Source: Escherichia coli
Lineage (GTDB): Bacteria; Pseudomonadota; Gammaproteobacteria; Enterobacterales; Enterobacteriaceae
DNA length: 64,000 nt
Strand: one strand, 5' to 3'
Assembly: GCF_003018255.1 (NCBI RefSeq)
Contig: NZ_CP027440.1
The position numbers were made by a program, and so were the translations under genes. The notes below the pieces were generated by a model. The model saw nothing but the letters and a program-made list of their open reading frames with translations. It ran no database searches and was not told where the DNA came from. Numbering within the stretch: the first letter of the stretch is position 1; the number at the start of each line of letters is the position of its first letter. Positions 2,171 to 48,426 of the stretch are shown piece after piece.

Positions 2171-3136
2171 ATGTCAGACTATCAAATGTTTGAAGTACAG
2201 GTGAGTCAGGTGGAACCGCTTACCGAACAGGTGAAACGCTTCACGCTGGTGGCAACCGATGGCAAACCGCTGCCTGCGTTCACCGGAGGAAGTCACATCA
2301 TAGTGCAGATGAGCGATGGTGATAACCAGTACAGCAATGCGTATTCACTACTGAGTTCACCGCATAACACCTCTAGTTATCAGATTGCCGTTCGACTGGA
2401 GGAAAACTCGCGCGGCGGTTCCCGCTTTTTGCATCAGCAGGTAAAAGTGGGCGATCGGTTAACGATTTCAACGCCTAATAACCTGTTTGCGCTAATTCCC
2501 TCGGCCAGAAAGCATCTGTTTATCGCGGGCGGTATTGGTATCACCCCTTTCCTGTCGCACCTGGCAGAGTTGCAATACAGCGACGTCGACTGGCAGCTAC
2601 ATTACTGCACGCGAAATCCAGAAAGTTGCGCATTTCGTGATGAGCTAGTCCAGCATCCACAGGCTGAGAAAGTTCACTTACATCACTCATCAACCGGAAC
2701 ACGACTGGAATTAGCGCGATTATTGGCGGATATCGAACCTGGCACACATGTTTATACCTGTGGCCCCGAGGCGCTAAATGAAGCGGTAAGAAGTGAAGCT
2801 GCGCGTCTGAACATCGCCGCCGATACGCTGCACTTTGAGCAATTTGCTATCGAAGACAAAACCGGCGATGCATTTACCCTGGTGCTTGCCCGTTCCGGAA
2901 AAGAGTTTGTGGTGCCGGAAGAGATGACTATTTTGCAGGTTATTGAAAATAATAAAGCAGCGAAAGTGGAATGTTTATGTCGTGAAGGGGTATGCGGAAC
3001 CTGCGAAACGGCAATACTGGAAGGTGAAGCTGACCATCGGGATCAGTATTTTAGCGATGAAGAGCGTGCCAGCCAGCAAAGTATGTTGATCTGTTGTTCG
3101 CGCGCGAAGGGTAAACGCCTGGTGTTGGATTTGTAG
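2171..3136 (+). CDS. yeaX: Carnitine monooxygenase reductase subunit (ferredoxin-NAD reductase with C-terminal 2Fe-2S ferredoxin domain), 321 aa
   Basis: ORF 2171..3136; C-terminal CxxGxCxxC ferredoxin motif (CREGVCGTC); adjacent to yeaW. Confidence 0.92.
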   Translation: MSDYQMFEVQVSQVEPLTEQVKRFTLVATDGKPLPAFTGGSHIIVQMSDGDNQYSNAYSLLSSPHNTSSYQIAVRLEENSRGGSRFLHQQVKVGDRLTISTPNNLFALIPSARKHLFIAGGIGITPFLSHLAELQYSDVDWQLHYCTRNPESCAFRDELVQHPQAEKVHLHHSSTGTRLELARLLADIEPGTHVYTCGPEALNEAVRSEAARLNIAADTLHFEQFAIEDKTGDAFTLVLARSGKEFVVPEEMTILQVIENNKAAKVECLCREGVCGTCETAILEGEADHRDQYFSDEERASQQSMLICCSRAKGKRLVLDL

Positions 3137-3140
3137 TTTG

Positions 3141-3177
3141 CCGAAGCCGGACTGAGCGCGCCCAGTCCGGCTTCGGA
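3141..3177. terminator. GC-rich 14-bp inverted repeat between convergent yeaX and rnd (likely bidirectional terminator)
   Basis: ccgaagccggactg ... cagtccggcttcgg palindrome directly after the yeaX stop codon. Confidence 0.5.
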
Positions 3178-3182
3178 AGATT

Positions 3183-4310
3183 TTACTGCGGATATTCCTG
3201 CAATAAATTGTGTAATGCTTCCGCCATCAGCTCACCACGCCAGCCGGAAATCAGCTCCGGCAAATTGTTCTGCGGTTTCAGTTTCCAGTGCCAGTTCAGC
3301 AGTTGGTTGATTTGCCGACGCGATGCCAGCAATTCGGCGCTGATCTTGTGCGTTTCGCTCACGTCAGTAATCAGCGACTTAATCGCTTTAAACGCTTTAC
3401 GATAACCCGGCATGTCCATCAGGTTAAGCATCGGCTGCGGTAAGGCCTCTTCCGGCAATGCCTGCGCTTTTTCCACCAGCGCCAGCAGCGTTTTACCGTG
3501 AAAGCGGATTTCGCTACCGGATAAGCCCAGGCTGTCCAGTTCGCCTAAACTTCCCGGCATATAACGCGCTACGGACCACAAATGCTCTTCACGCACGACA
3601 AAGTTCACTGCCAGATCGCGCTCCCGCGCCTTGCGCAGTCGCCAGTCGGCTAACAGTTGCAGACAGGCCAGTTGGCGTGTGCGTAACTGCCAGGCATTGG
3701 TGATATCACGCCAGGCATCTTCCGGAGCAACGACTTCCTGACGACGCATTTGCATCAGGCGGCATTCATCCAGCGCCGCAGGTAGCCAGCCGGAGGCCTC
3801 CGTTTCTACCATAAGCTTTGCGGTGATCGGTAACAGATACCAGACATCCGCCGCTGCGTATTCACACTGACGTTCGGTCAGCGGTCTGGCCAGCCAGTCG
3901 GTGCGCGATTCACTCTTGTCCAGCGTAACGCCGGAATACTCTTCCACCATGGAAGCGAAACCCCATGACATCGGGCGTCCGCAGAAGGCAGCAAGGATTT
4001 GCGTGTCAATCAAGGGTTGTGGTAATTCGCCAAAGACATTGAGGAACACTTCCAGATCTTCACTGCCCGCATGGAGAAATTTTGTGATGGACGGATCGCG
4101 CAGGATCGCTTTCAGCGGTGACCAGTCAGAGATCCCGAGGGGATCAATTAGCGCCAGATGCTCACCATCAAAAAGTTGAATTAGACCCAGTTGCGGGTAA
4201 TAGGTGCGCGTACGAACAAATTCAGTATCCAGGGCTATCGCCGGAAAGGCACGGACGGCTTCACACAAAGAAGCCAGCGCATCGTCCGTGGTAATCATTT
4301 GGTAATTCAA
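3183..4310 (-). CDS. rnd: Ribonuclease D, 375 aa
   Basis: ORF 3183..4310 minus; translation matches RNase D (3'-5' exonuclease plus HRDC domains); length exact. Confidence 0.95.
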   Translation of the reverse strand: MNYQMITTDDALASLCEAVRAFPAIALDTEFVRTRTYYPQLGLIQLFDGEHLALIDPLGISDWSPLKAILRDPSITKFLHAGSEDLEVFLNVFGELPQPLIDTQILAAFCGRPMSWGFASMVEEYSGVTLDKSESRTDWLARPLTERQCEYAAADVWYLLPITAKLMVETEASGWLPAALDECRLMQMRRQEVVAPEDAWRDITNAWQLRTRQLACLQLLADWRLRKARERDLAVNFVVREEHLWSVARYMPGSLGELDSLGLSGSEIRFHGKTLLALVEKAQALPEEALPQPMLNLMDMPGYRKAFKAIKSLITDVSETHKISAELLASRRQINQLLNWHWKLKPQNNLPELISGWRGELMAEALHNLLQEYPQ

Positions 4311-4379
4311 ATTGTATTCTCTTTAGTGGGCGTCAAAAAAAACGCCGGATTAACCGGCGTCTGACGACTGACTTAACGC

Positions 4380-6065
4380 TCAGGCTTTATTGTCCACTTT
4401 GCCGCGCGCTTCGTCACGTAATTCTCGTCGCAAAATTTTTCCGACGTTAGATTTCGGTAACTCATCACGAAACTCCACCAGCTTCGGTACTTTGTAGCCC
4501 GTGAGCTGACGGCGGCAAAAAGTCACCAGTGACTCTTCGGTAAGTGATGGATCTTTTTTCACAACGAAGATTTTCACCGCTTCGCCACTGGAGCCAGAAG
4601 GTACGCCAACAGCCGCGACTTCCTGTACGCCAGGATGCTGCATGACGACATCTTCAATCTCGTTGGGATAGACGTTAAAACCGGAAACCAGAATCATGTC
4701 TTTTTTACGATCGACAATACGCAGGAATCCTTCTTCATCCATCACCGCGATGTCGCCAGTGTGTAACCAGCCATTTTTGATGATTTCATCGGTAGCATCC
4801 GGACGCTGCCAGTAACCCAGCATCACCTGCGGTCCTTTGACACAAAGCTCACCTGGTTGACCCGGTGGTACTTCGTTGTCGTCGTCATCCACCAGTTTGG
4901 CTTCCGTCGACGGCACCGGCAAACCGATGCTACCACTATGATAATCAATATCATACGGGTTAACGCTGACCAGCGGCGCACACTCGGTCAGGCCATAACC
5001 TTCCAGCAGATACTGCCCTGTCAGTTTCACCCAACGTTCTGCCACCACTTGCTGAACAGGCATCCCACCGCCTGCGGAAAGGTGCAGACTGGAGAAATCC
5101 AGCTGCTGGAACTCTTTATTGTTCAGCAACGCATTGAATAAGGTGTTAACGCCAGTGATAGCGGTAAACGGATATTTCGCTAACTCTTTTACCAACCCTG
5201 GAATATCGCGCGGGTTAGTGATAAGCAGGTTCTGCCCACCCAGTTCGATAAACAGCAGGCAGTTAATGGTCAGTGCAAAAATGTGATAAAGCGGCAGCGC
5301 CGTCACCACCAGCTCTTTGCCCGGATGCAACAGCGGACCATAGGTCGCGTTAACCTGTTCCAGGTTCGCCAGCATATTGCGGTGAGTCAGCATCGCGCCT
5401 TTCGCCACACCAGTGGTACCGCCGGTGTATTGCAGGAAAGCTAAATCTTCCGGCACCAGTTCGGGTTTGACGTACTGCATCCGGTAGCCGTTGTGCAGGG
5501 CGCTACGAAATGAAATGGCATCTGGCAGATGGTATTTCGGCACCAGACGCTTGATGTATTTAACAACAAAATTGACTACCGTGCCTTTTGCCGTAGATAG
5601 CTGATCGCCCATACGGGTCAGAATTACGTGCTGAACGGCGGTTTTATCAACCACTTTTTCCAGAGTGTGGGCAAAGTTAGACACGATAACAATCGCCGAT
5701 GCGCCGCTATCGTTAAGCTGATGCTCAAGTTCACGCGGGGTATACAACGGGTTAACGTTTACGACAATCATCCCGGCACGCAAAATGCCAAACAGCGCCA
5801 CCGGATATTGCAATAAATTAGGCATCATCAACGCAACGCGATCGCCTTTCTTCAGTCCCAACCCTTGTTGCAAATAAGCGGCAAACGCGCGACTGCGTTC
5901 TTCCAGTTTGCGGAAGGTCATCACCTCCCCCATATTCACAAACGCGGGTTGATCGGCGTAGCGCGCGACCGACTGCTCAAACATATCTACCAGAGATTGA
6001 TAACGGTCAGGGTTGATCTCCGTCGGAACGTCCGCGGGATAACGGTTAAGCCAAACCTTCTTCAA
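4380..6065 (-). CDS. fadD: Long-chain fatty-acid CoA ligase FadD, 561 aa, TTG start
   Basis: ORF 4380..6131 minus; known N-terminus [10 protein letters not shown] begins at the TTG codon at 6063-6065; AMP-binding motif [12 protein letters not shown] present. Confidence 0.93.
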
Positions 6066-6137
6066 TTCTTCACCTCTAAAATGCGTGTTCGTCGTCATCG
6101 CAACCCCAAATGATATACATGCCGTTAACATAATATT

Positions 6138-6154
6138 AACTCATCATACCAGCT
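6138..6154. promoter_or_regulatory. FadR operator O1 of fadD promoter
   Basis: Reverse complement reads AGCTGGTATGATGAGTT, matching the FadR box as I recall it, 73-89 bp upstream of fadD start. Confidence 0.55.
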
Positions 6155-6223
6155 TGATAATTACCCAACGAAAAGGTTGCGAAGCGCGTCACTATTTATT
6201 TTTATCTTTACCGTAAGAATGCA

Positions 6224-6258
6224 GAAACAGCGGACCAGCCGCTGTTTCTTTTTCTTTA
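6224..6258. promoter_or_regulatory. FadR operator O2 embedded in a perfect 10-bp stem hairpin with T-tract (also probable yeaY 3' terminator)
   Basis: gaaacagcgg-accag-ccgctgtttc followed by tttttcttt; reverse complement contains GGCTGGTCCGCTGTTTC. Confidence 0.5.
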
Positions 6259-6269
6259 AAAACAAGCAA

Positions 6270-6851
6270 TTATTCAGTTACAACTGTTTGTACTCTCGCG
6301 GGACCGGGATTATACCAGCCCCATCCACCGTAGCCATAGGGCCAGCCACGACCGCCATAAAACCATGGATCAATCGGCTGAGGCGGCATAATCACCTGCT
6401 GGGTTAAATGCCAACGTTTGTAACCCGTTACTTGCATCACCATAAATTTATAGGGCGTGTTGCCGATTTTGCCGTCAACCGCACCGGTGATTGGCCCAAC
6501 TACCGTAACCAGTTGTCCACGGAAATCTACCGGGTCCAGAAAACCGTTCACATCGGCATAAATGCGCCCGCGTGAAGGTTCTCCCAAAGTTGGTCTGGCT
6601 CCGCTGTCCAGCGGTACGGTAGCAATTTCCAGGCGGGTTTTCCCTTGCTGGTTTTGTACCGCAACCACTTTGCCACCAAAGCGTGCCTCCTGACCAACGT
6701 ACAGCTGCGGCGCACTCATCACCCGAACTAAATCTTGTTGCGGCGTGGGACTGCTGCCTTTAATGGCGTCCGGCACAGTAACACAACCGCTCAGCATTAG
6801 CGCAAACGTACCTGCCAGTATGCCTTTGATAACATTCTTTTGAACCGCCAT
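6270..6851 (-). CDS. yeaY: Slp-family outer-membrane lipoprotein YeaY, 193 aa
   Basis: ORF 6270..6851 minus; lipoprotein signal with LSGC lipobox; Slp-like sequence. Confidence 0.9.
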
Positions 6852-6888
6852 GATGCGACTCCTTTTTCTCAGGGCATACTCTTAAGAT

Positions 6889-7584
6889 TCATTCTTTGCC
6901 CGGAAGTTTCTTCCATGCGACGTTGTTACGTAAATAAACCGGTTCGGCATGTTCCACCGCCACCGTTTTACTCTCGGCAAACATCTGACAAGCAATCGGC
7001 AGCATATCTTCTGCAGCGGGCAGTAACACTTCGCCATCGCACAGGGCCAAACCGCTCTCTTTACCGAGATCCGGCCAGGCTTGCCAGCCCGTCCCTACCG
7101 TCACCCATTCGCCGGAAAGCTGTTGCATCCGTTCATGAACGAGTTCAGGTTTCAGTACGGCTTCGGTTTCTTCACCGTGCCAGATACCGTTTTCATCACG
7201 CTGATATTCGGCCCAGTAAACTTCGCCCATTCGCGCGTCAATGGCTGCCAGCACGCGTGTTGCGCCGTTTTTGCGCCACGCCCCTTGCGCCATCGTCATT
7301 AGCGTGGAGACGCCAATCATCGGTAATTCCGCGCCAAGCGCCAGCCCTTGCGCGATGCCAATACCAATGCGCACGCCAGTAAAGCTACCGGGGCCGCGCC
7401 CGTAAGCCAGAGCGTTAATATCAGTCAGGGAAGTTCCGCTGGTGGTCAGGATATCCTGCACCATCGGTAAGATTCGTTGAGTATGTTCACGAGGGCAAAG
7501 CTCAAAATGAGCGTTGACAGTACCGTCGTTCCACAGGGCGACAGAGCAGGCCTCTGTCGCGGTATCGATAGCCAGAATTCGCAT
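6889..7584 (-). CDS. tsaB: tRNA t6A37 threonylcarbamoyladenosine biosynthesis protein TsaB (YeaZ), 231 aa
   Basis: ORF 6889..7584 minus; N-terminus [17 protein letters not shown] typical of TsaB. Confidence 0.93.
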
Positions 7585-7641
7585 GGGTCTTCGTGCTTAG
7601 ATCAATAAAAAGGCGCGCATCATACCATACTCCGTAACAAA

Positions 7642-9552
7642 TTACCTGGAGGATGGTATCGCAAGGAAACGAACCGCACGGGCAATGTCACGGGTGCGCG
7701 GCGCTGGCGGCAGACTGGCGAGAAACGTCGCGCCGTAAGGGCGCATCACCAGCCGATTGTCGCAAATCACCAGCACGCCGCGATCGTCAGCGTCGCGAAT
7801 CAGTCGCCCTACCCCCTGTTTGAGAGTAATGACCGCATCCGGCAGCTGTACTTCATCGAACGGGTCGCCACCGCGCAAACGGCAATCTTCCATGCGCGCT
7901 TTTAACAGTGGATCATCCGGCGAGGTAAACGGCAATTTGTCGATAATCACCAATGACAGCGTATCGCCACGCACGTCCACCCCTTCCCAGAAGCTGCTGG
8001 TTGCCACAAGAAGCGCGTTACCGGCGCTGACAAATTGCTGCAACAGTTGCCCTTTGCTGGTTTCCCCCTGCAACAAAACGGGAAGCGTCATGGTAGCGCG
8101 GAACTGCTCGGCCAGATCGCGCATCATGGCGTGCGAGGTACAAAGCATAAAACAACGACCGTTGTTAGCTTCGATGATCGGTCGCAACATTGCCGCCAGT
8201 TGCCGTGCGGAGCCCGGTTGATTGGTTTGCGGCAGGTTGCGCGGCACACAGAGTAACGCCTGGCGGCTGTAATCAAACGGGCTGGGTAACAGCAACGACT
8301 CTGCCTGTTCAATGCCAAGCCGCGAGGTAAAATGATGCAGATCGTCATTCACCGACAGCGTTGCCGAGGTAAAAATCCAGCTACCTGGCTTTTGCGCCAT
8401 TAACTCTTTGAATTTATCCGCCACGCTAAGCGGCGTCAGCGCGAGAGTGAAATGGCGCGAGGTACATTCGTACCAGTAGCTGTAACCCGGCTGATTAATC
8501 TCTTTTAGCCGTTTGAGTCGCGTGCGATACAACGTGGCGCGTTCAAATGCCGCATCCAGCAAGGCGGAACGCCCCAGCGAAAGTTTCGCCACGTCATAAC
8601 AAAGTTCCAGGGTGTCATCGAGCAGTAAAAACGCCCGCTGAATTTGCGGATTAGCTAACAGTTCGCGCAGGTTGCCACGATAACCAGGCTCACCGAGTTG
8701 CAGACGAAAATCCTGCGCGCTCTGGGCAAGGCGGTCGGCGCACTTTTGTAACTGCTGGGTGTCTTTTAATTCGGTGCGGTAGGCGATGGTGATGTCTTTT
8801 GCCAGGTCGAGCAGTTGTCGACTGGAGAGTGACTGACCAAAATACTGGCTGGCAATGTCAGGCAGTTGGTGGGCTTCGTCGAAGATCATCACGTCAGCTT
8901 CCGGGATCAGTTCGCCAAATCCACTCTCTTTCACCACCATATCCGCCAGAAAGAGATGATGGTTTACCACCACCACATCGGCGTCCATCGCTTTTTTGCG
9001 TGCTTTGACCACAAAGCAATCTTTATACATCGGGCAGTCGCTGCCAAGACAGTTGTCGTTGGTGCTGGTGACCAGCGGCCACGCCTGTGAATCTTCCGCC
9101 ACGCTGACGCAGGTGCTGATATCACCATCGACTGTTTGATTAGACCAGGAGCGCAGCAGGATCACATCGCTTAAGATTTGTACCGGCAGATCGCCCCCCG
9201 CCAGCGCCTGCTGTTCGAGACGCTCGAGGCAGAGGTAGTTTGAGCGCCCTTTCAGCAACGCCACATTGCCCGTGTATTTCAATGCCTTTGAGACTGTTGG
9301 CAAATCGCGGCTGTAGAGCTGATCCTGCAACGCTTTTGAGCCGGTCGAGATAATGACTTTCTTTTTCGCCCGCAGCGCAGGAGCCAGGTAAGCGTAGGTT
9401 TTGCCCGTACCGGTTCCTGCTTCCACCACCAGCGGCTGGCCTTTTTCTATCGCCTGGGTGACGGCTACCGCCATCTGTCGCTGTGGTTCTCGCGGCTTAA
9501 AGCCTGGTATCGCTTTCGCCAGCTGACCGTCTGGTGCAAAATCGTCCGTCAC
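7642..9552 (-). CDS. yoaA: DinG-family ATP-dependent DNA helicase YoaA, 636 aa
   Basis: ORF 7642..9552 minus; Walker A GTGTGKT, DEAH box (FDEAHQL), Cys cluster consistent with Fe-S helicase. Confidence 0.93.
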   Translation of the reverse strand: MTDDFAPDGQLAKAIPGFKPREPQRQMAVAVTQAIEKGQPLVVEAGTGTGKTYAYLAPALRAKKKVIISTGSKALQDQLYSRDLPTVSKALKYTGNVALLKGRSNYLCLERLEQQALAGGDLPVQILSDVILLRSWSNQTVDGDISTCVSVAEDSQAWPLVTSTNDNCLGSDCPMYKDCFVVKARKKAMDADVVVVNHHLFLADMVVKESGFGELIPEADVMIFDEAHQLPDIASQYFGQSLSSRQLLDLAKDITIAYRTELKDTQQLQKCADRLAQSAQDFRLQLGEPGYRGNLRELLANPQIQRAFLLLDDTLELCYDVAKLSLGRSALLDAAFERATLYRTRLKRLKEINQPGYSYWYECTSRHFTLALTPLSVADKFKELMAQKPGSWIFTSATLSVNDDLHHFTSRLGIEQAESLLLPSPFDYSRQALLCVPRNLPQTNQPGSARQLAAMLRPIIEANNGRCFMLCTSHAMMRDLAEQFRATMTLPVLLQGETSKGQLLQQFVSAGNALLVATSSFWEGVDVRGDTLSLVIIDKLPFTSPDDPLLKARMEDCRLRGGDPFDEVQLPDAVITLKQGVGRLIRDADDRGVLVICDNRLVMRPYGATFLASLPPAPRTRDIARAVRFLAIPSSR

Positions 9553-9683
9553 ACTACCCCCTGTTGATTTGAACAGGGATTATGTCAGGATGAGGGCGCT
9601 TTCGCCAGTTGAAGTGATGACGGCGACCTCACATTGTGGCAGTCTTTGCAGCACGAAAATGGAAGTATAATGAGGACAAAATG

Positions 9684-10028
9684 ATGACTATCGTTCGTAT
9701 CGATGCTGAAGCCCGCTGGTCTGATGTGGTGATCCACAACAACACGCTCTACTACACTGGTGTACCGGAAAACCTCGACGCCGATGCTTTCGAGCAAACT
9801 GCCAACACGCTGGCGCAGATTGACGCCGTGCTGGAAAAACAGGGCAGCAATAAATCGAGCATTCTGGATGCCACCATTTTCCTGGCTGATAAAAACGACT
9901 TCGCGGCGATGAATAAAGCGTGGGATGCCTGGGTTGTCGCGGGTCATGCGCCGGTGCGCTGCACGGTACAAGCGGGTTTGATGAACCCGAAGTATAAAGT
10001 TGAAATTAAGATTGTGGCTGCGGTGTAA
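9684..10028 (+). CDS. yoaB: RidA/YjgF-family protein YoaB, 114 aa
   Basis: Internal ATG at 9684 of ORF 9636..10028 gives known length; RidA-like translation. Confidence 0.88.
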   Translation: MTIVRIDAEARWSDVVIHNNTLYYTGVPENLDADAFEQTANTLAQIDAVLEKQGSNKSSILDATIFLADKNDFAAMNKAWDAWVVAGHAPVRCTVQAGLMNPKYKVEIKIVAAV

Positions 10029-23908: not shown

Positions 23909-24532
23909 AAACAGAACTGTACCTCGTTTAACCCGAAATCTGTTATCACATACAACGTTAATTATGGCAAGCCATTTTTAAACATGTCTCGATCAGACGC
24001 ACAAATCTCGATACGTCTTCCACTTTTTTTGCACACTTATGCAACGGAATACGCGCCGATATATCATTGTGCTTAACCTTGCCAGTTCAGGCAGATACTT
24101 AAACTGACGTATTTTCTAACATAGTTCAATAAGTTCAGTTGTTCCAGGCCAGTGGGAGAAGTTATTACATAGTGCGTGCAATATCACATTTTCTGCTATG
24201 CAATGAATAAAAAGTTATATCACTTTTTCTCATAAAACAGTCAGTTAACGGCTATCGATCACCCCAAAGAGAAGTCAATCGCCAAAGGTATTGTAAATTT
24301 AAAATAAGAAAAATTGATGAATGCGCAAAAAAATCAAGAGAGAAACGTTTCGCTAATAAATAATACCACGCTTAATCACAAATCCGATGTAAACATCCTA
24401 ATAAATTAATGGGCTAAATATCTTTTTCTGATATCCCGTTACGCAAATAAATAATATGATAATTATTTGAAGTCAGACCAGAGTTTTAATTTGAAGCAGT
24501 TGCACCATGACAGTGCGTATAATCAGGATGAA

Positions 24533-27966: not shown

Positions 27967-27997
27967 AAAAAGCGCGTCGATCAGGACGCGCTTTTTA
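27965..27997. terminator. Bidirectional intrinsic terminator between convergent yebQ and htpX
   Basis: aaaaaa-agcgcgtc-gatcag-gacgcgct-ttttt. Confidence 0.75.
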
Positions 27998-29048: not shown

Positions 29049-29079
29049 AAAAAATCAGGCACAATTTCTTGTGCCTGAT
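29049..29079 (-). terminator. prc intrinsic terminator
   Basis: Minus-strand stem tcaggcacaa / ttgtgcctga followed by uuuuuu. Confidence 0.7.
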
Positions 29080-29084
29080 TGATA

Positions 29085-31133
29085 TTACTTGACGGGAGCG
29101 GGTTGTTCCGCGGGTCTGGCTTTTTCAAGCTTCGCCAGATCGAGTGCGATATTCACCGTCTCATCCAGATAAGGATCCGGCTCCTGGTAATCTTTCGGTA
29201 GATCATCCAGTTTCTTCAACTCCGGTTTACCTTCGCGCTTAAAGCGTTCGTTCAAACGCGCCAGACGCGTCGCATCATCTTCATTATTCTCTTTCTCACG
29301 CACAGCGTAATTCAGAGAAACGATATTGCGCTTGTCCTTCATAGCGTTGAAGCGCGCGATATCCTTCATGATGTTCTGGAACTCTGGATCTTTCGCGATA
29401 CGCGCATTATGTTCCTTCAGCAGCTCCGGTCCAAAGGCCGTCAAATCTCCCGATTTCACATAGGTCGCGGCATCGATGCTATCCCACGGCAGCGCGTTAT
29501 CTTCGAATTTCTCACCGGTTTCCGTTTCTTCATTACCCGTCGGCATGATGATGTCTGGCGTTACGCCTTTACGTTGCGTACTGCCGCCGTTAACGCGATA
29601 GAATTTCTGGATCGTGTACTGCACAGAACCCAGCGCTGGCCATTCAGGACGTAACATCTGATCGTAGATACGGTTCAATGAACGGTATTGCTGAACGGTG
29701 CCTTTACCAAACGTCGGTTCACCCACAACCAGCGCACGACCGTAATCCTGCATTGCCGCGGCAAAGATTTCTGAAGCCGAAGCACTGAAGCGGTCAACCA
29801 GCACCACCAGCGGGCCTTTATAGAAAACCTGCCCATCGGTATCGCTGTCTTCACGAACTTTACCGTTGTTATCACGGACCTGAACAATCGGACCGGATGG
29901 AATGAACAGACCGGAGAGCGATACCGCTTCGGTCAACGCCCCACCGCCATTGCTACGCAGGTCGATGATGACACTGCTGACATTCTGTTTTTCCAGTTTC
30001 TGCAACTGCACTTTGACATCGTCTGTCAAACCCACATAGAAACCTGGAATATCCAGAACGCCGACTTTCTCTTTACCGACGGTCTTCACCGACATTTTAA
30101 CCGCACGGTCTTCGAGGCGAATACGTTCACGGGTCAACGTTACAGTACGGGTCTTGGTCCCTTTACCAGCAGGTAAAATTTCCAGACGAACTTTACTGCC
30201 CTTCGGCCCTTTAATTAAGGCAACCACATCATCAAGACGCCAGCCAATCACGTCAACCATCGGCTTGCCTGTTTGACCAACACCGACAATTTTGTCACCA
30301 ACGCTGATAGCTTTACTCTTCGCTGCCGGACCACCTGCCACCATCGAATTGATAACGGTGTAGTCATCATCCATTTGCAGAACTGCGCCAATACCTTCCA
30401 GCGACAAACTCATTTCAGTGTTGAACTGTTCGGTATTACGCGGGGAAAGATAGTTGGTATGCGGGTCGATTTCACGCGCAAACGCCGTCATTGCCAGCGA
30501 GAAAACATCTTCGCTGTTGGTTTGCGCCAGACGACGAATGGCAAATTTGTAGCGGCGAGTCAGGGTTTCACGAATTTCTTTATCCGTTTTTCCTGCCAGC
30601 TTCAGGCTTAACTCGTCGAATTTGACTTTACTGTCCCACAGCGCGTTCAACTCAGCCTCGTTTTTCGGCCAGGGCGCTTTGCTGCGGTCAAGGTTATAAG
30701 TGTCGTTGCCGGTGAAATCCATCGGCTTTTCCAGTACCGACAAAGCGTACTGGTAACGTTCAAAACGACGCTTTTGCGCCAGATTGTAGAGATCGTAGAA
30801 AACGTCGAGTTTGCCTGAACGCAGTTCATCGCCTAACTCGGTTTTCTTTTTCGCGAACTGTTCAACATCGCTTGCCAGCAGCACGTTGTGGCTGTAATCG
30901 AGCAGATTCAGATAGCGGTCAAAGATTTTGGCCGAAAATGCCTGATCGAGGTCGAACTGGCGATAATGAGAACGGGTGAAGCGCGACGTTACGCGCTCAC
31001 TCACCGTCGCATGCTGCGTCTCTTCCTTTAATACCGGAATTTGATCAGCACGCGTGATATCTTCTACAGCGAAGGTCTGGCCTGCTATTGCAAGCAGGCC
31101 AGCTAACGCGGTAAGCCTAAAAAACATGTTCAT
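29085..31133 (-). CDS. prc: Tail-specific periplasmic protease Prc (Tsp), 682 aa
   Basis: Internal ATG (MNMFFRLTALAGLLAIAG signal peptide) of ORF 29085..31181; PDZ and S41 peptidase motifs. Confidence 0.93.
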   Translation of the reverse strand: MNMFFRLTALAGLLAIAGQTFAVEDITRADQIPVLKEETQHATVSERVTSRFTRSHYRQFDLDQAFSAKIFDRYLNLLDYSHNVLLASDVEQFAKKKTELGDELRSGKLDVFYDLYNLAQKRRFERYQYALSVLEKPMDFTGNDTYNLDRSKAPWPKNEAELNALWDSKVKFDELSLKLAGKTDKEIRETLTRRYKFAIRRLAQTNSEDVFSLAMTAFAREIDPHTNYLSPRNTEQFNTEMSLSLEGIGAVLQMDDDYTVINSMVAGGPAAKSKAISVGDKIVGVGQTGKPMVDVIGWRLDDVVALIKGPKGSKVRLEILPAGKGTKTRTVTLTRERIRLEDRAVKMSVKTVGKEKVGVLDIPGFYVGLTDDVKVQLQKLEKQNVSSVIIDLRSNGGGALTEAVSLSGLFIPSGPIVQVRDNNGKVREDSDTDGQVFYKGPLVVLVDRFSASASEIFAAAMQDYGRALVVGEPTFGKGTVQQYRSLNRIYDQMLRPEWPALGSVQYTIQKFYRVNGGSTQRKGVTPDIIMPTGNEETETGEKFEDNALPWDSIDAATYVKSGDLTAFGPELLKEHNARIAKDPEFQNIMKDIARFNAMKDKRNIVSLNYAVREKENNEDDATRLARLNERFKREGKPELKKLDDLPKDYQEPDPYLDETVNIALDLAKLEKARPAEQPAPVK

Positions 31134-48395: not shown

Positions 48396-48426
48396 AAAAA
48401 TGCCCGATCCTCGATCGGGCATTTTG
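48396..48426. terminator. Bidirectional intrinsic terminator between convergent purT and eda
   Basis: aaaaatgcccgatc-ctc-gatcgggcatttt. Confidence 0.75.

Follow-up and report, generated by a model that had tools for sequence, protein, structure and literature searches.

The distal FadR operator of the fadD promoter is superimposed on a probable leaky terminator hairpin of tsaB-yeaY in Escherichia coli

The upstream of the two FadR operators in the fadD promoter of E. coli, called O2 here, shares its DNA with a perfect hairpin that follows the stop codon of the neighboring gene yeaY. In the reading that we consider most probable (roughly 0.78), this hairpin is the intrinsic but leaky terminator of tsaB-yeaY transcription and acts as RNA, a weak FadR half-site coincides with its loop and 3' arm, the two elements are functionally separate, and the conservation of O2 is a by-product of the conservation of the stem. 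The overlap of the FadR site and the probable terminator would thus be physical only.

Results

Layout of the yeaY-fadD spacer

The window referred to throughout is the whole 64,000-nt stretch of E. coli DNA that was analyzed (contig NZ_CP027440.1), and genome coordinates of K-12 MG1655 (NC_000913.3) are obtained by adding 1,883,681 to window positions. Window positions 6040-6290 are 100% identical to K-12 MG1655 (251 bp), and a 601-bp segment spanning the yeaY-fadD spacer has matches in 5425 of 5426 complete genomes, where the flanking genes are annotated as yeaY and fadD. The spacer is 204 bp long (6066-6269) and both of its flanking genes are on the minus strand. The features of the region are as follows.

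4380-6065, minus strand: fadD coding sequence, 561 aa, TTG start at 6065 (open reading frame and RefSeq K-12 annotation 1888061-1889746)
6125-6126, minus strand: fadD transcription start, 60 bp 5' of the start codon (Feng & Cronan 2012); SMRT-Cappable-seq TSS 1889807 corresponds to 6126
6138-6154, minus strand: FadR operator O1, AGCTGGTATGATGAGTT, at -13 to -29, where it overlaps the -35 region and the promoter spacer; matches the published probe exactly
6178-6193, no strand assigned: CRP-cAMP class I site, AGTGAcgcgctTCGCA on the minus strand, centre about -60; core coordinates read from the sequence
6210-6224, no strand assigned: ArcA-P site (approximate extent) and degenerate U-rich terminator tail, UGCAUUCUUACGG; coordinates inferred
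6220, minus strand: mapped 3' end of tsaB-yeaY transcripts, RNA ending in ...CCGCUGUUUCUGCA (Yan et al. 2018; ±1 nt)
6223-6249, minus strand: probable terminator hairpin, arms AGAAACAGCGG and CCGCUGUUUCU, loop CUGGU; 11-bp perfect stem with covariation
6224-6240, minus strand: FadR operator O2, GGCTGGTCCGCTGTTTC, at -99 to -115; exact match to the published site-2 probe
6250-6262, minus strand: A-rich tract 5' of the hairpin on the yeaY strand, UUUUUAAAGAAAAA; seen on the plus strand, this is the T-tract of the first-pass annotation
6270-6851, minus strand: yeaY coding sequence, Slp-family lipoprotein, 193 aa; stop codon at 6270-6272
6879, minus strand: yeaY's own transcription start (SMRT-Cappable-seq operon b1806, TSS 1890560)
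6889-7584, minus strand: tsaB (yeaZ) coding sequence, co-transcribed with yeaY (operon b1807-b1806)
7613, minus strand: tsaB-yeaY transcription start (TSS 1891294; Yan et al. 2018, PMC6131387)

The program-made fadD reading frame runs 22 codons further 5' (6066-6131, minus strand), to an ATG at 6131. Because this ATG lies 5' of the mapped transcription start at 6126, the annotated TTG at 6065 is taken as the usable fadD start. A minus-strand promoter prediction at 6139-6110 was inconsistent with the same mapped start and was set aside. At the other end of the spacer, yeaY is included in a published listing of the sigmaE regulon (Bury-Moné et al. 2009), and the sequence 5' of its start at 6879 (GAAACTT ... 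TCTTA) suggests a sigmaE-like promoter. A scan of positions 4000-7800 against Rfam returned no RNA family within the spacer; its sole hit was the sRNA sroD (RF00370, 115 bits) at 4336-4421 on the minus strand, overlapping the 3' end of fadD. The sroD terminator is consistent with Term-seq 3' ends at 1888017-20 (Adams et al. 2021).

A perfect hairpin follows yeaY

The inverted repeat downstream of yeaY has arms at 6223-6233 and 6239-6249 that pair perfectly over 11 bp, including six G-C pairs, around a 5-nt loop, for a palindrome of 27 bp in all. The first-pass annotation had recognized the repeat and its 5-nt loop, although it counted a stem of only 10 bp, and had correctly placed the hairpin 20 nt from the yeaY stop codon: exactly 20 nt (6250-6269) separate the two. 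On either strand the predicted folding energy is near -19 kcal/mol, with a z score of about -5. Markov simulations predict 0.2 perfect hairpins with stems of 10 bp or more in the window, against six observed, and the one in the yeaY-fadD spacer is not a chance occurrence.

Read on the strand of yeaY, the U-tail of the hairpin is poor in E. coli. The T-tract TTTTTCTTT (6250-6258), which had been offered as evidence for a yeaY terminator, is 3' of the hairpin on the plus strand only; on the yeaY strand it is an A-rich tract that precedes the hairpin, so this part of the argument was made on the wrong strand. After the full stem, the yeaY-strand tail reads GCAUUCUUAC and contains 4 U in 8 nt; counted from the GC core of the stem it is UUUCUGCAUUCUUA, with 8 U in 14 nt. 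A consensus terminator scan called the hairpin on the plus strand and not on the yeaY strand, because the yeaY-strand tail has just 4 U in 8.

Transcripts of tsaB-yeaY end at the hairpin and also pass it

Published SMRT-Cappable-seq data contain a reverse-strand 'novelTTS' at NC_000913.3:1889901 for tsaB-yeaY (b1807-b1806) transcripts starting at 1891294 (Yan et al. 2018, PMC6131387, Supplementary Data 1), and the site was recorded in two growth media. Conversion of coordinates places this end at window position 6220, which is 3 nt beyond the complete stem and 8 nt beyond its GC core. In M9 medium, 109 reads were assigned to the transcription start, 19 of which end at the site, 3 within 50 bp beyond it and 16 at least 50 bp beyond; the corresponding figures in rich medium are 24, 110 and 5, for a total of 204 reads from the start (PMC6131387). 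Read-through can thus be estimated from small counts at about 42% in M9 (16/38 informative reads) versus about 4% in rich medium (5/139). The same study lists tsaB-yeaY-fadD (b1807-b1806-b1805) as a novel extended operon, and in a separate one overexpression of sigmaE raised yeaY 2.8-fold, fadD 2.2-fold and rnd 1.5-fold, the three being grouped as one unit (Bury-Moné et al. 2009). Because transcripts have a mapped end at 6220, some of them read through, and fadD is co-induced by sigmaE, we regard the tsaB-yeaY terminator as real but leaky.

The identification of the hairpin as the end of the yeaY transcript in the first-pass annotation is therefore borne out by the published end, as well as by the pairing data given below. 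The annotation had also set read-through of yeaY transcripts against termination at this site, and here both are found: transcripts end at 6220, but the terminator leaks. Exonuclease trimming of longer transcripts can likewise leave a 3' end at the base of a stable hairpin; we infer that the end at 6220 comes from termination rather than trimming. The Term-seq tables of Adams et al. (2021) contain no 3' end within the yeaY-fadD spacer, perhaps because yeaY is too weakly expressed or the tables are incomplete, and the TERMITe supplements have no entry for a 3' end at this hairpin. Mapping of any plus-strand transcript with an end near 6258 had been suggested as well, and the SMRT-Cappable-seq tables list no plus-strand start or end here, all of their '18899..' entries being on the reverse strand.

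The stem covaries and its wobble pairs point to the yeaY strand

A search with FadD returned 80 Enterobacterales loci; Salmonella and Klebsiella proper are absent from this set, their place being taken by Raoultella and several Citrobacter species. yeaY precedes fadD in all but one of the loci (79/80), and in nearly all of the Enterobacteriaceae among them a hairpin is found equally far from fadD. When 37 distinct Enterobacteriaceae sequences are aligned, a helix of 15 pairs is 86% paired, versus 44-68% when the partner strand is slid by 1-3 columns, and the core 11 pairs are nearly always paired. Double (compensatory) changes affect six pairs and 34 cells of the alignment, values that none of 500 shuffles reached, with arms that covary as GAAAC/GTTTC, GAGAC/GTCTC, GAAGC/GCTTC, GAGGC/GCCTC, CAGAC/GTCTG and TAAAC/GTTTA. 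The core 11 pairs include 13 cells with G·U on the yeaY-sense strand and none with A·C, the form that a G·U pair of the opposite strand would take. This asymmetry indicates that the selected structure is an RNA transcribed from the minus strand.

The relatives also have better tails than E. coli, with 9-11 U in 14 nt, including U7 runs, and Enterobacter has a clean U-tract directly after the stem (...CUGUCUCUGUUUUUUUA). Outside this group, the same position is occupied in Serratia, Yersinia rohdei, Pectobacterium, Pantoea and Erwinia by unrelated GC hairpins with T-runs after them. At 6211-6222, E. coli and Citrobacter have a degraded U-tail (TGCATTCTTACGG) in comparison with Enterobacter (TGTTTTTTTACGG). 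The published ArcA site adjoins O2 in this stretch, and there may be a connection between that site and terminator leakiness.

A plus-strand or bidirectional terminator, serving a transcript antisense to the fadD promoter region and using the T-tract at 6250-6258, would fit the plus-strand scan call (tail TTTTTCTTTAA) and the equally stable plus-strand fold, but there is no plus-strand gene, no convergent gene and no listed plus-strand start or end here, the T-run of the relatives is on the yeaY-sense side, and the wobble asymmetry of 13 to 0 together with the absent plus-strand ends led us to reject this very improbable reading.

O2 is a bona fide but weak FadR site

The two FadR boxes proposed in the first-pass annotation proved to be correct when read on the minus strand: both are published operators of fadD by exact probe match. 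They were footprinted earlier as OD1 and OD2 (Black et al. 1992, as cited in PMC3460868), and gel shifts later confirmed that the promoter has two FadR sites, of which site 2 binds FadR more than 10-fold more weakly than site 1 (Feng & Cronan 2012, PMC3460868). Oleoyl-CoA releases FadR from both sites, and fadD is derepressed only 2-3 fold by deletion of fadR (PMC3460868). The same work describes the CRP site of this promoter as a class I site and reports that the ArcA site and FadR site 2 share one bp. Reverse-complemented, its site-2 probe (GAAACAGCGGCTGGTCCGCTGTTTCTGCATTCT) equals window positions 6216-6248, and its site-1 and CRP probes match the window too, the latter corresponding to 6164-6211 and containing the CRP site at 6178-6193. 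Within each strand of the site-2 33-mer, 11 bp of self-complementarity could let the strand fold on itself instead of forming a duplex, which might exaggerate the weak binding reported for this site.

The motif scan suggested by the first-pass annotation separates the two operators clearly. With a small weight matrix built from six other published FadR sites, O1 scored 18.0 bits and ranked first among the 127,968 17-mers of the window, whereas O2 scored 8.1 bits and ranked 39th. The published FadR consensus is a 17-bp palindrome, aaCTGGTCnGACCWGtt, i.e. aaCTGGTCnGACC(T/A)Gtt. The left half of O2, CTGGTC, matches it perfectly, while the right half, GCTGT, agrees with GACCW at 2 of 5 positions. 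By its sequence alone O2 is thus a weak match, and its status as an operator comes from the published footprints and gel shifts. These establish O2 as a real FadR binding site and not a mere look-alike: it is protected, shifted and released by acyl-CoA.

O2 extends over the final 2 nt of the 5' arm of the hairpin, the entire loop and the initial 10 nt of the 3' arm. We considered an extended symmetric FadR operator and rejected it; the center of hairpin symmetry (6236) is 4 bp away from the center of the box (6232), and the mirrored box reads ACCAG, not CTGGT. At -99 to -115, O2 is out of position for blocking RNA polymerase at the fadD promoter; O1 is at -13 to -29. A 2022 review draws attention to the location of O2 (-100), which 'is surprising if it is to act as a repressor', and states that in vivo tests of the site are lacking. 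Our literature search found no FadR ChIP-exo data relevant to this site.

The FadR-specific bases of O2 drift while the stem is kept

In the 37 aligned sequences, the core CTGGT of O2, which forms the hairpin loop, is kept in 7, and the FadR box retains T4 in 59% and G5 in 30%. Positions C11, T12 and G13 of O2 run contrary to the FadR consensus and are conserved in 100% of the sequences, because they are base-paired in the stem. By comparison, the CTGGT core of O1 is kept in 77 of the 80 loci, across the whole order. An earlier published statement held that FadR site 2 is conserved in Citrobacter, Klebsiella and Enterobacter; that conservation is explained by the base-paired stem, with the bases that FadR needs being free to drift. 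The claim of a dual-use element, both uses of which are maintained, does not hold up against these data, as selection is seen on the hairpin only, and the CTGGT core is also polymorphic within E. coli.

Most variant loops differ from CTGGT by a single base, a pattern that may mean that CTGGT is the ancestral loop in slow decay and not one gained recently. O2 may have been important in the past, and perhaps still is in K-12-type strains. In Enterobacter sp. 10-1 (L012), and also in a second locus (L014), the loop is CCAGT and a better FadR-like box, TTCTGGTCTGATAAGAA (10.2 bits), is found just 3' of the hairpin, in L012 at about -154 from fadD. In this lineage the distal FadR site may thus have shifted to a place outside the hairpin.

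Of 5425 complete E. coli genomes, 4006 show no difference from the window between 6190 and 6275 and have the K-12-type loop CTGGT. Another 1017 of 5422 genomes (about 19%) have a variant that differs solely by a CCGGT loop (6234-6238) and leaves the stem intact; the base altered is invariant in all seven published FadR sites. The loop alleles CTGGT and CCGGT constitute a natural separation-of-function pair. A different arrangement is seen in APEC E12049, where the alignment covers 6250-6295: unrelated DNA adjoins the 5' side of the hairpin, yeaY is not annotated under the match, and a second terminator-like hairpin, AACCCCCAGCCTAGCTGGGGGTTTTCT, is present just 5' of the shared one. The junction is probably an insertion or rearrangement.

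Discussion

A probable leaky terminator under a FadR half-site

According to the favored explanation, the minus-strand transcript would fold into the 11-bp stem once the polymerase has passed the yeaY stop codon, and transcription would end about 3 nt beyond the full stem. As the U-tail has decayed in E. coli (UGCAUUCUU), a fraction of polymerases would continue into fadD. Such a leak would explain why transcripts spanning tsaB-yeaY-fadD have been published and why fadD is induced in a sigmaE-dependent way, and would account for the appearance of fadD in lists of the sigmaE regulon. O2, for its part, would be essentially a half-site: its good half, CTGGTC, corresponds to the hairpin loop and the first base of the stem, and its other half, a poor fit to the consensus, to the 3' arm. 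FadR would bind it as double-stranded DNA, as it does in vitro. Selection would act on the terminator, and the apparent conservation of O2 would be borrowed from the stem. Probably, O2 adds little to the control of fadD, which would be carried by O1, CRP and ArcA.

Alternative roles for O2

One alternative is that the overlap is functional after all, with FadR at O2, together with O1, forming an acyl-CoA-sensitive roadblock that sets how many polymerases from the tsaB or yeaY promoters reach or pass the terminator and go on into fadD. O2 does lie in the path of documented read-through transcription, and the idea would give it a purpose that is impossible at -100 for fadD initiation, where its position is acknowledged to be odd for a repressor. 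Moreover, if a polymerase stalled at the O2 edge, its hybrid (GUUUUUAAA) would be very weak, and read-through differs between M9 and rich medium, with 110 reads in the latter ending within 50 bp downstream of the mapped end. However, the medium effect consists of small counts with many other possible causes. O2 is also weak, and O1, which is 10-fold stronger and likewise in the path, could act as a roadblock alone. Finally, most genera, as well as about 19% of E. coli genomes, have lost the FadR core of O2 but retain the stem. On balance, we think such a coupled role unlikely. It is similarly doubtful that O2 exists for policing read-through instead of repressing the fadD promoter, with FadR on the terminator DNA stalling or releasing polymerases from the tsaB promoter and the sigmaE-driven promoter of yeaY. 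If it did, envelope-stress-driven expression of fadD would be gated by acyl-CoA, and the CCGGT allele would mark E. coli lineages that lack the gate through loss.

Another alternative treats the overlap with the hairpin as irrelevant and O2 as a conventional auxiliary operator that cooperates with O1, for instance by DNA looping or through interplay with ArcA, to repress the fadD promoter. The published footprint and the gel shift with acyl-CoA release fit this idea, as do the center-to-center distance between O1 and O2 of 86 bp, or about 8 helical turns, the ArcA site that adjoins O2, and a CTGGT loop that looks like the ancestral state. On the other side, FadR represses fadD just 2-3 fold despite having two sites, and the 2022 review reports no in vivo test of O2. 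The FadR-specific bases of O2 are not conserved, unlike those of O1 (77/80 loci), and the common natural CCGGT allele suggests that a change in the loop is tolerated. Furthermore, tetramers are not known for FadR. An auxiliary operator of this kind therefore strikes us as an improbable account of the site.

Relation to known systems

Each of the two superimposed elements, O2 and the end of the yeaY transcript, is already documented. OD1 and OD2 of fadD, insofar as the work of Black et al. (1992) is represented in PMC3460868, are the same locus, with the same sequences and positions, and the sites themselves show no difference. Neither Feng & Cronan (2012) nor the 2022 review notes the palindromy of site 2, its location 20 nt beyond the yeaY stop codon or the transcript ends there; the words 'palindrom', 'yeaY' and 'terminator' occur in neither. 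Likewise, TTS 1889901 and the extended operon of Yan et al. (2018, PMC6131387) represent the same 3' end and read-through described here, but they appear in supplementary tables only and are not linked to the hairpin sequence or to FadR. In the literature searched, we did not find a statement that O2 overlaps the yeaY terminator.

The hairpin resembles enterobacterial intrinsic terminators in having a GC-cored stem-loop after a stop codon, A-rich sequence before it and partly U-rich sequence after it, an RNA end a few nt past the stem, and covariation. It differs from them in that the E. coli copy has a degraded U-tract and measurable read-through, with an ArcA site on part of the tail and a FadR site on the loop and 3' arm. 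Roadblocks by transcription factors are known for CodY or CcpA in Bacillus and for LacI and PurR in E. coli. The arrangement at fadD is like these insofar as a repressor site is located within a transcribed path 3' of another promoter, a likeness that makes a roadblock possible only; unlike in those systems, no FadR-dependent 3' ends are known in the fadD spacer.

What is new here is the covariation of the stem with its wobble asymmetry, the variability of the CTGGT loop, and the correction of the strand of the T-tract. The location of O2 on the probable yeaY terminator offers a simple answer to a minor, acknowledged oddity, namely a FadR site at -100, and alters the way in which the conservation of this site is to be read; no new kind of element is involved.

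Other hairpins and FadR-like sequences in the window

The other five perfect hairpins of the window have stems of 10-14 bp and are located at 3141-3176, 27967-27996, 29053-29080, 31077-31102 and 48397-48425. Several of them are flanked by A/T runs typical of terminators, and the one at 3141-3176 sits between rnd and a convergent reading frame that ends at 3136. In the scan with the FadR matrix, two further 17-mers of the window scored 14.7 bits: CGCTGGTCTGATGTGGT at 9714-9730 on the plus strand, inside the reading frame 9636-10028, and CTCTGGTCTGACTTCAA at 24467-24483 on the minus strand, just beyond the end of a small minus-strand reading frame. Both may be chance matches.
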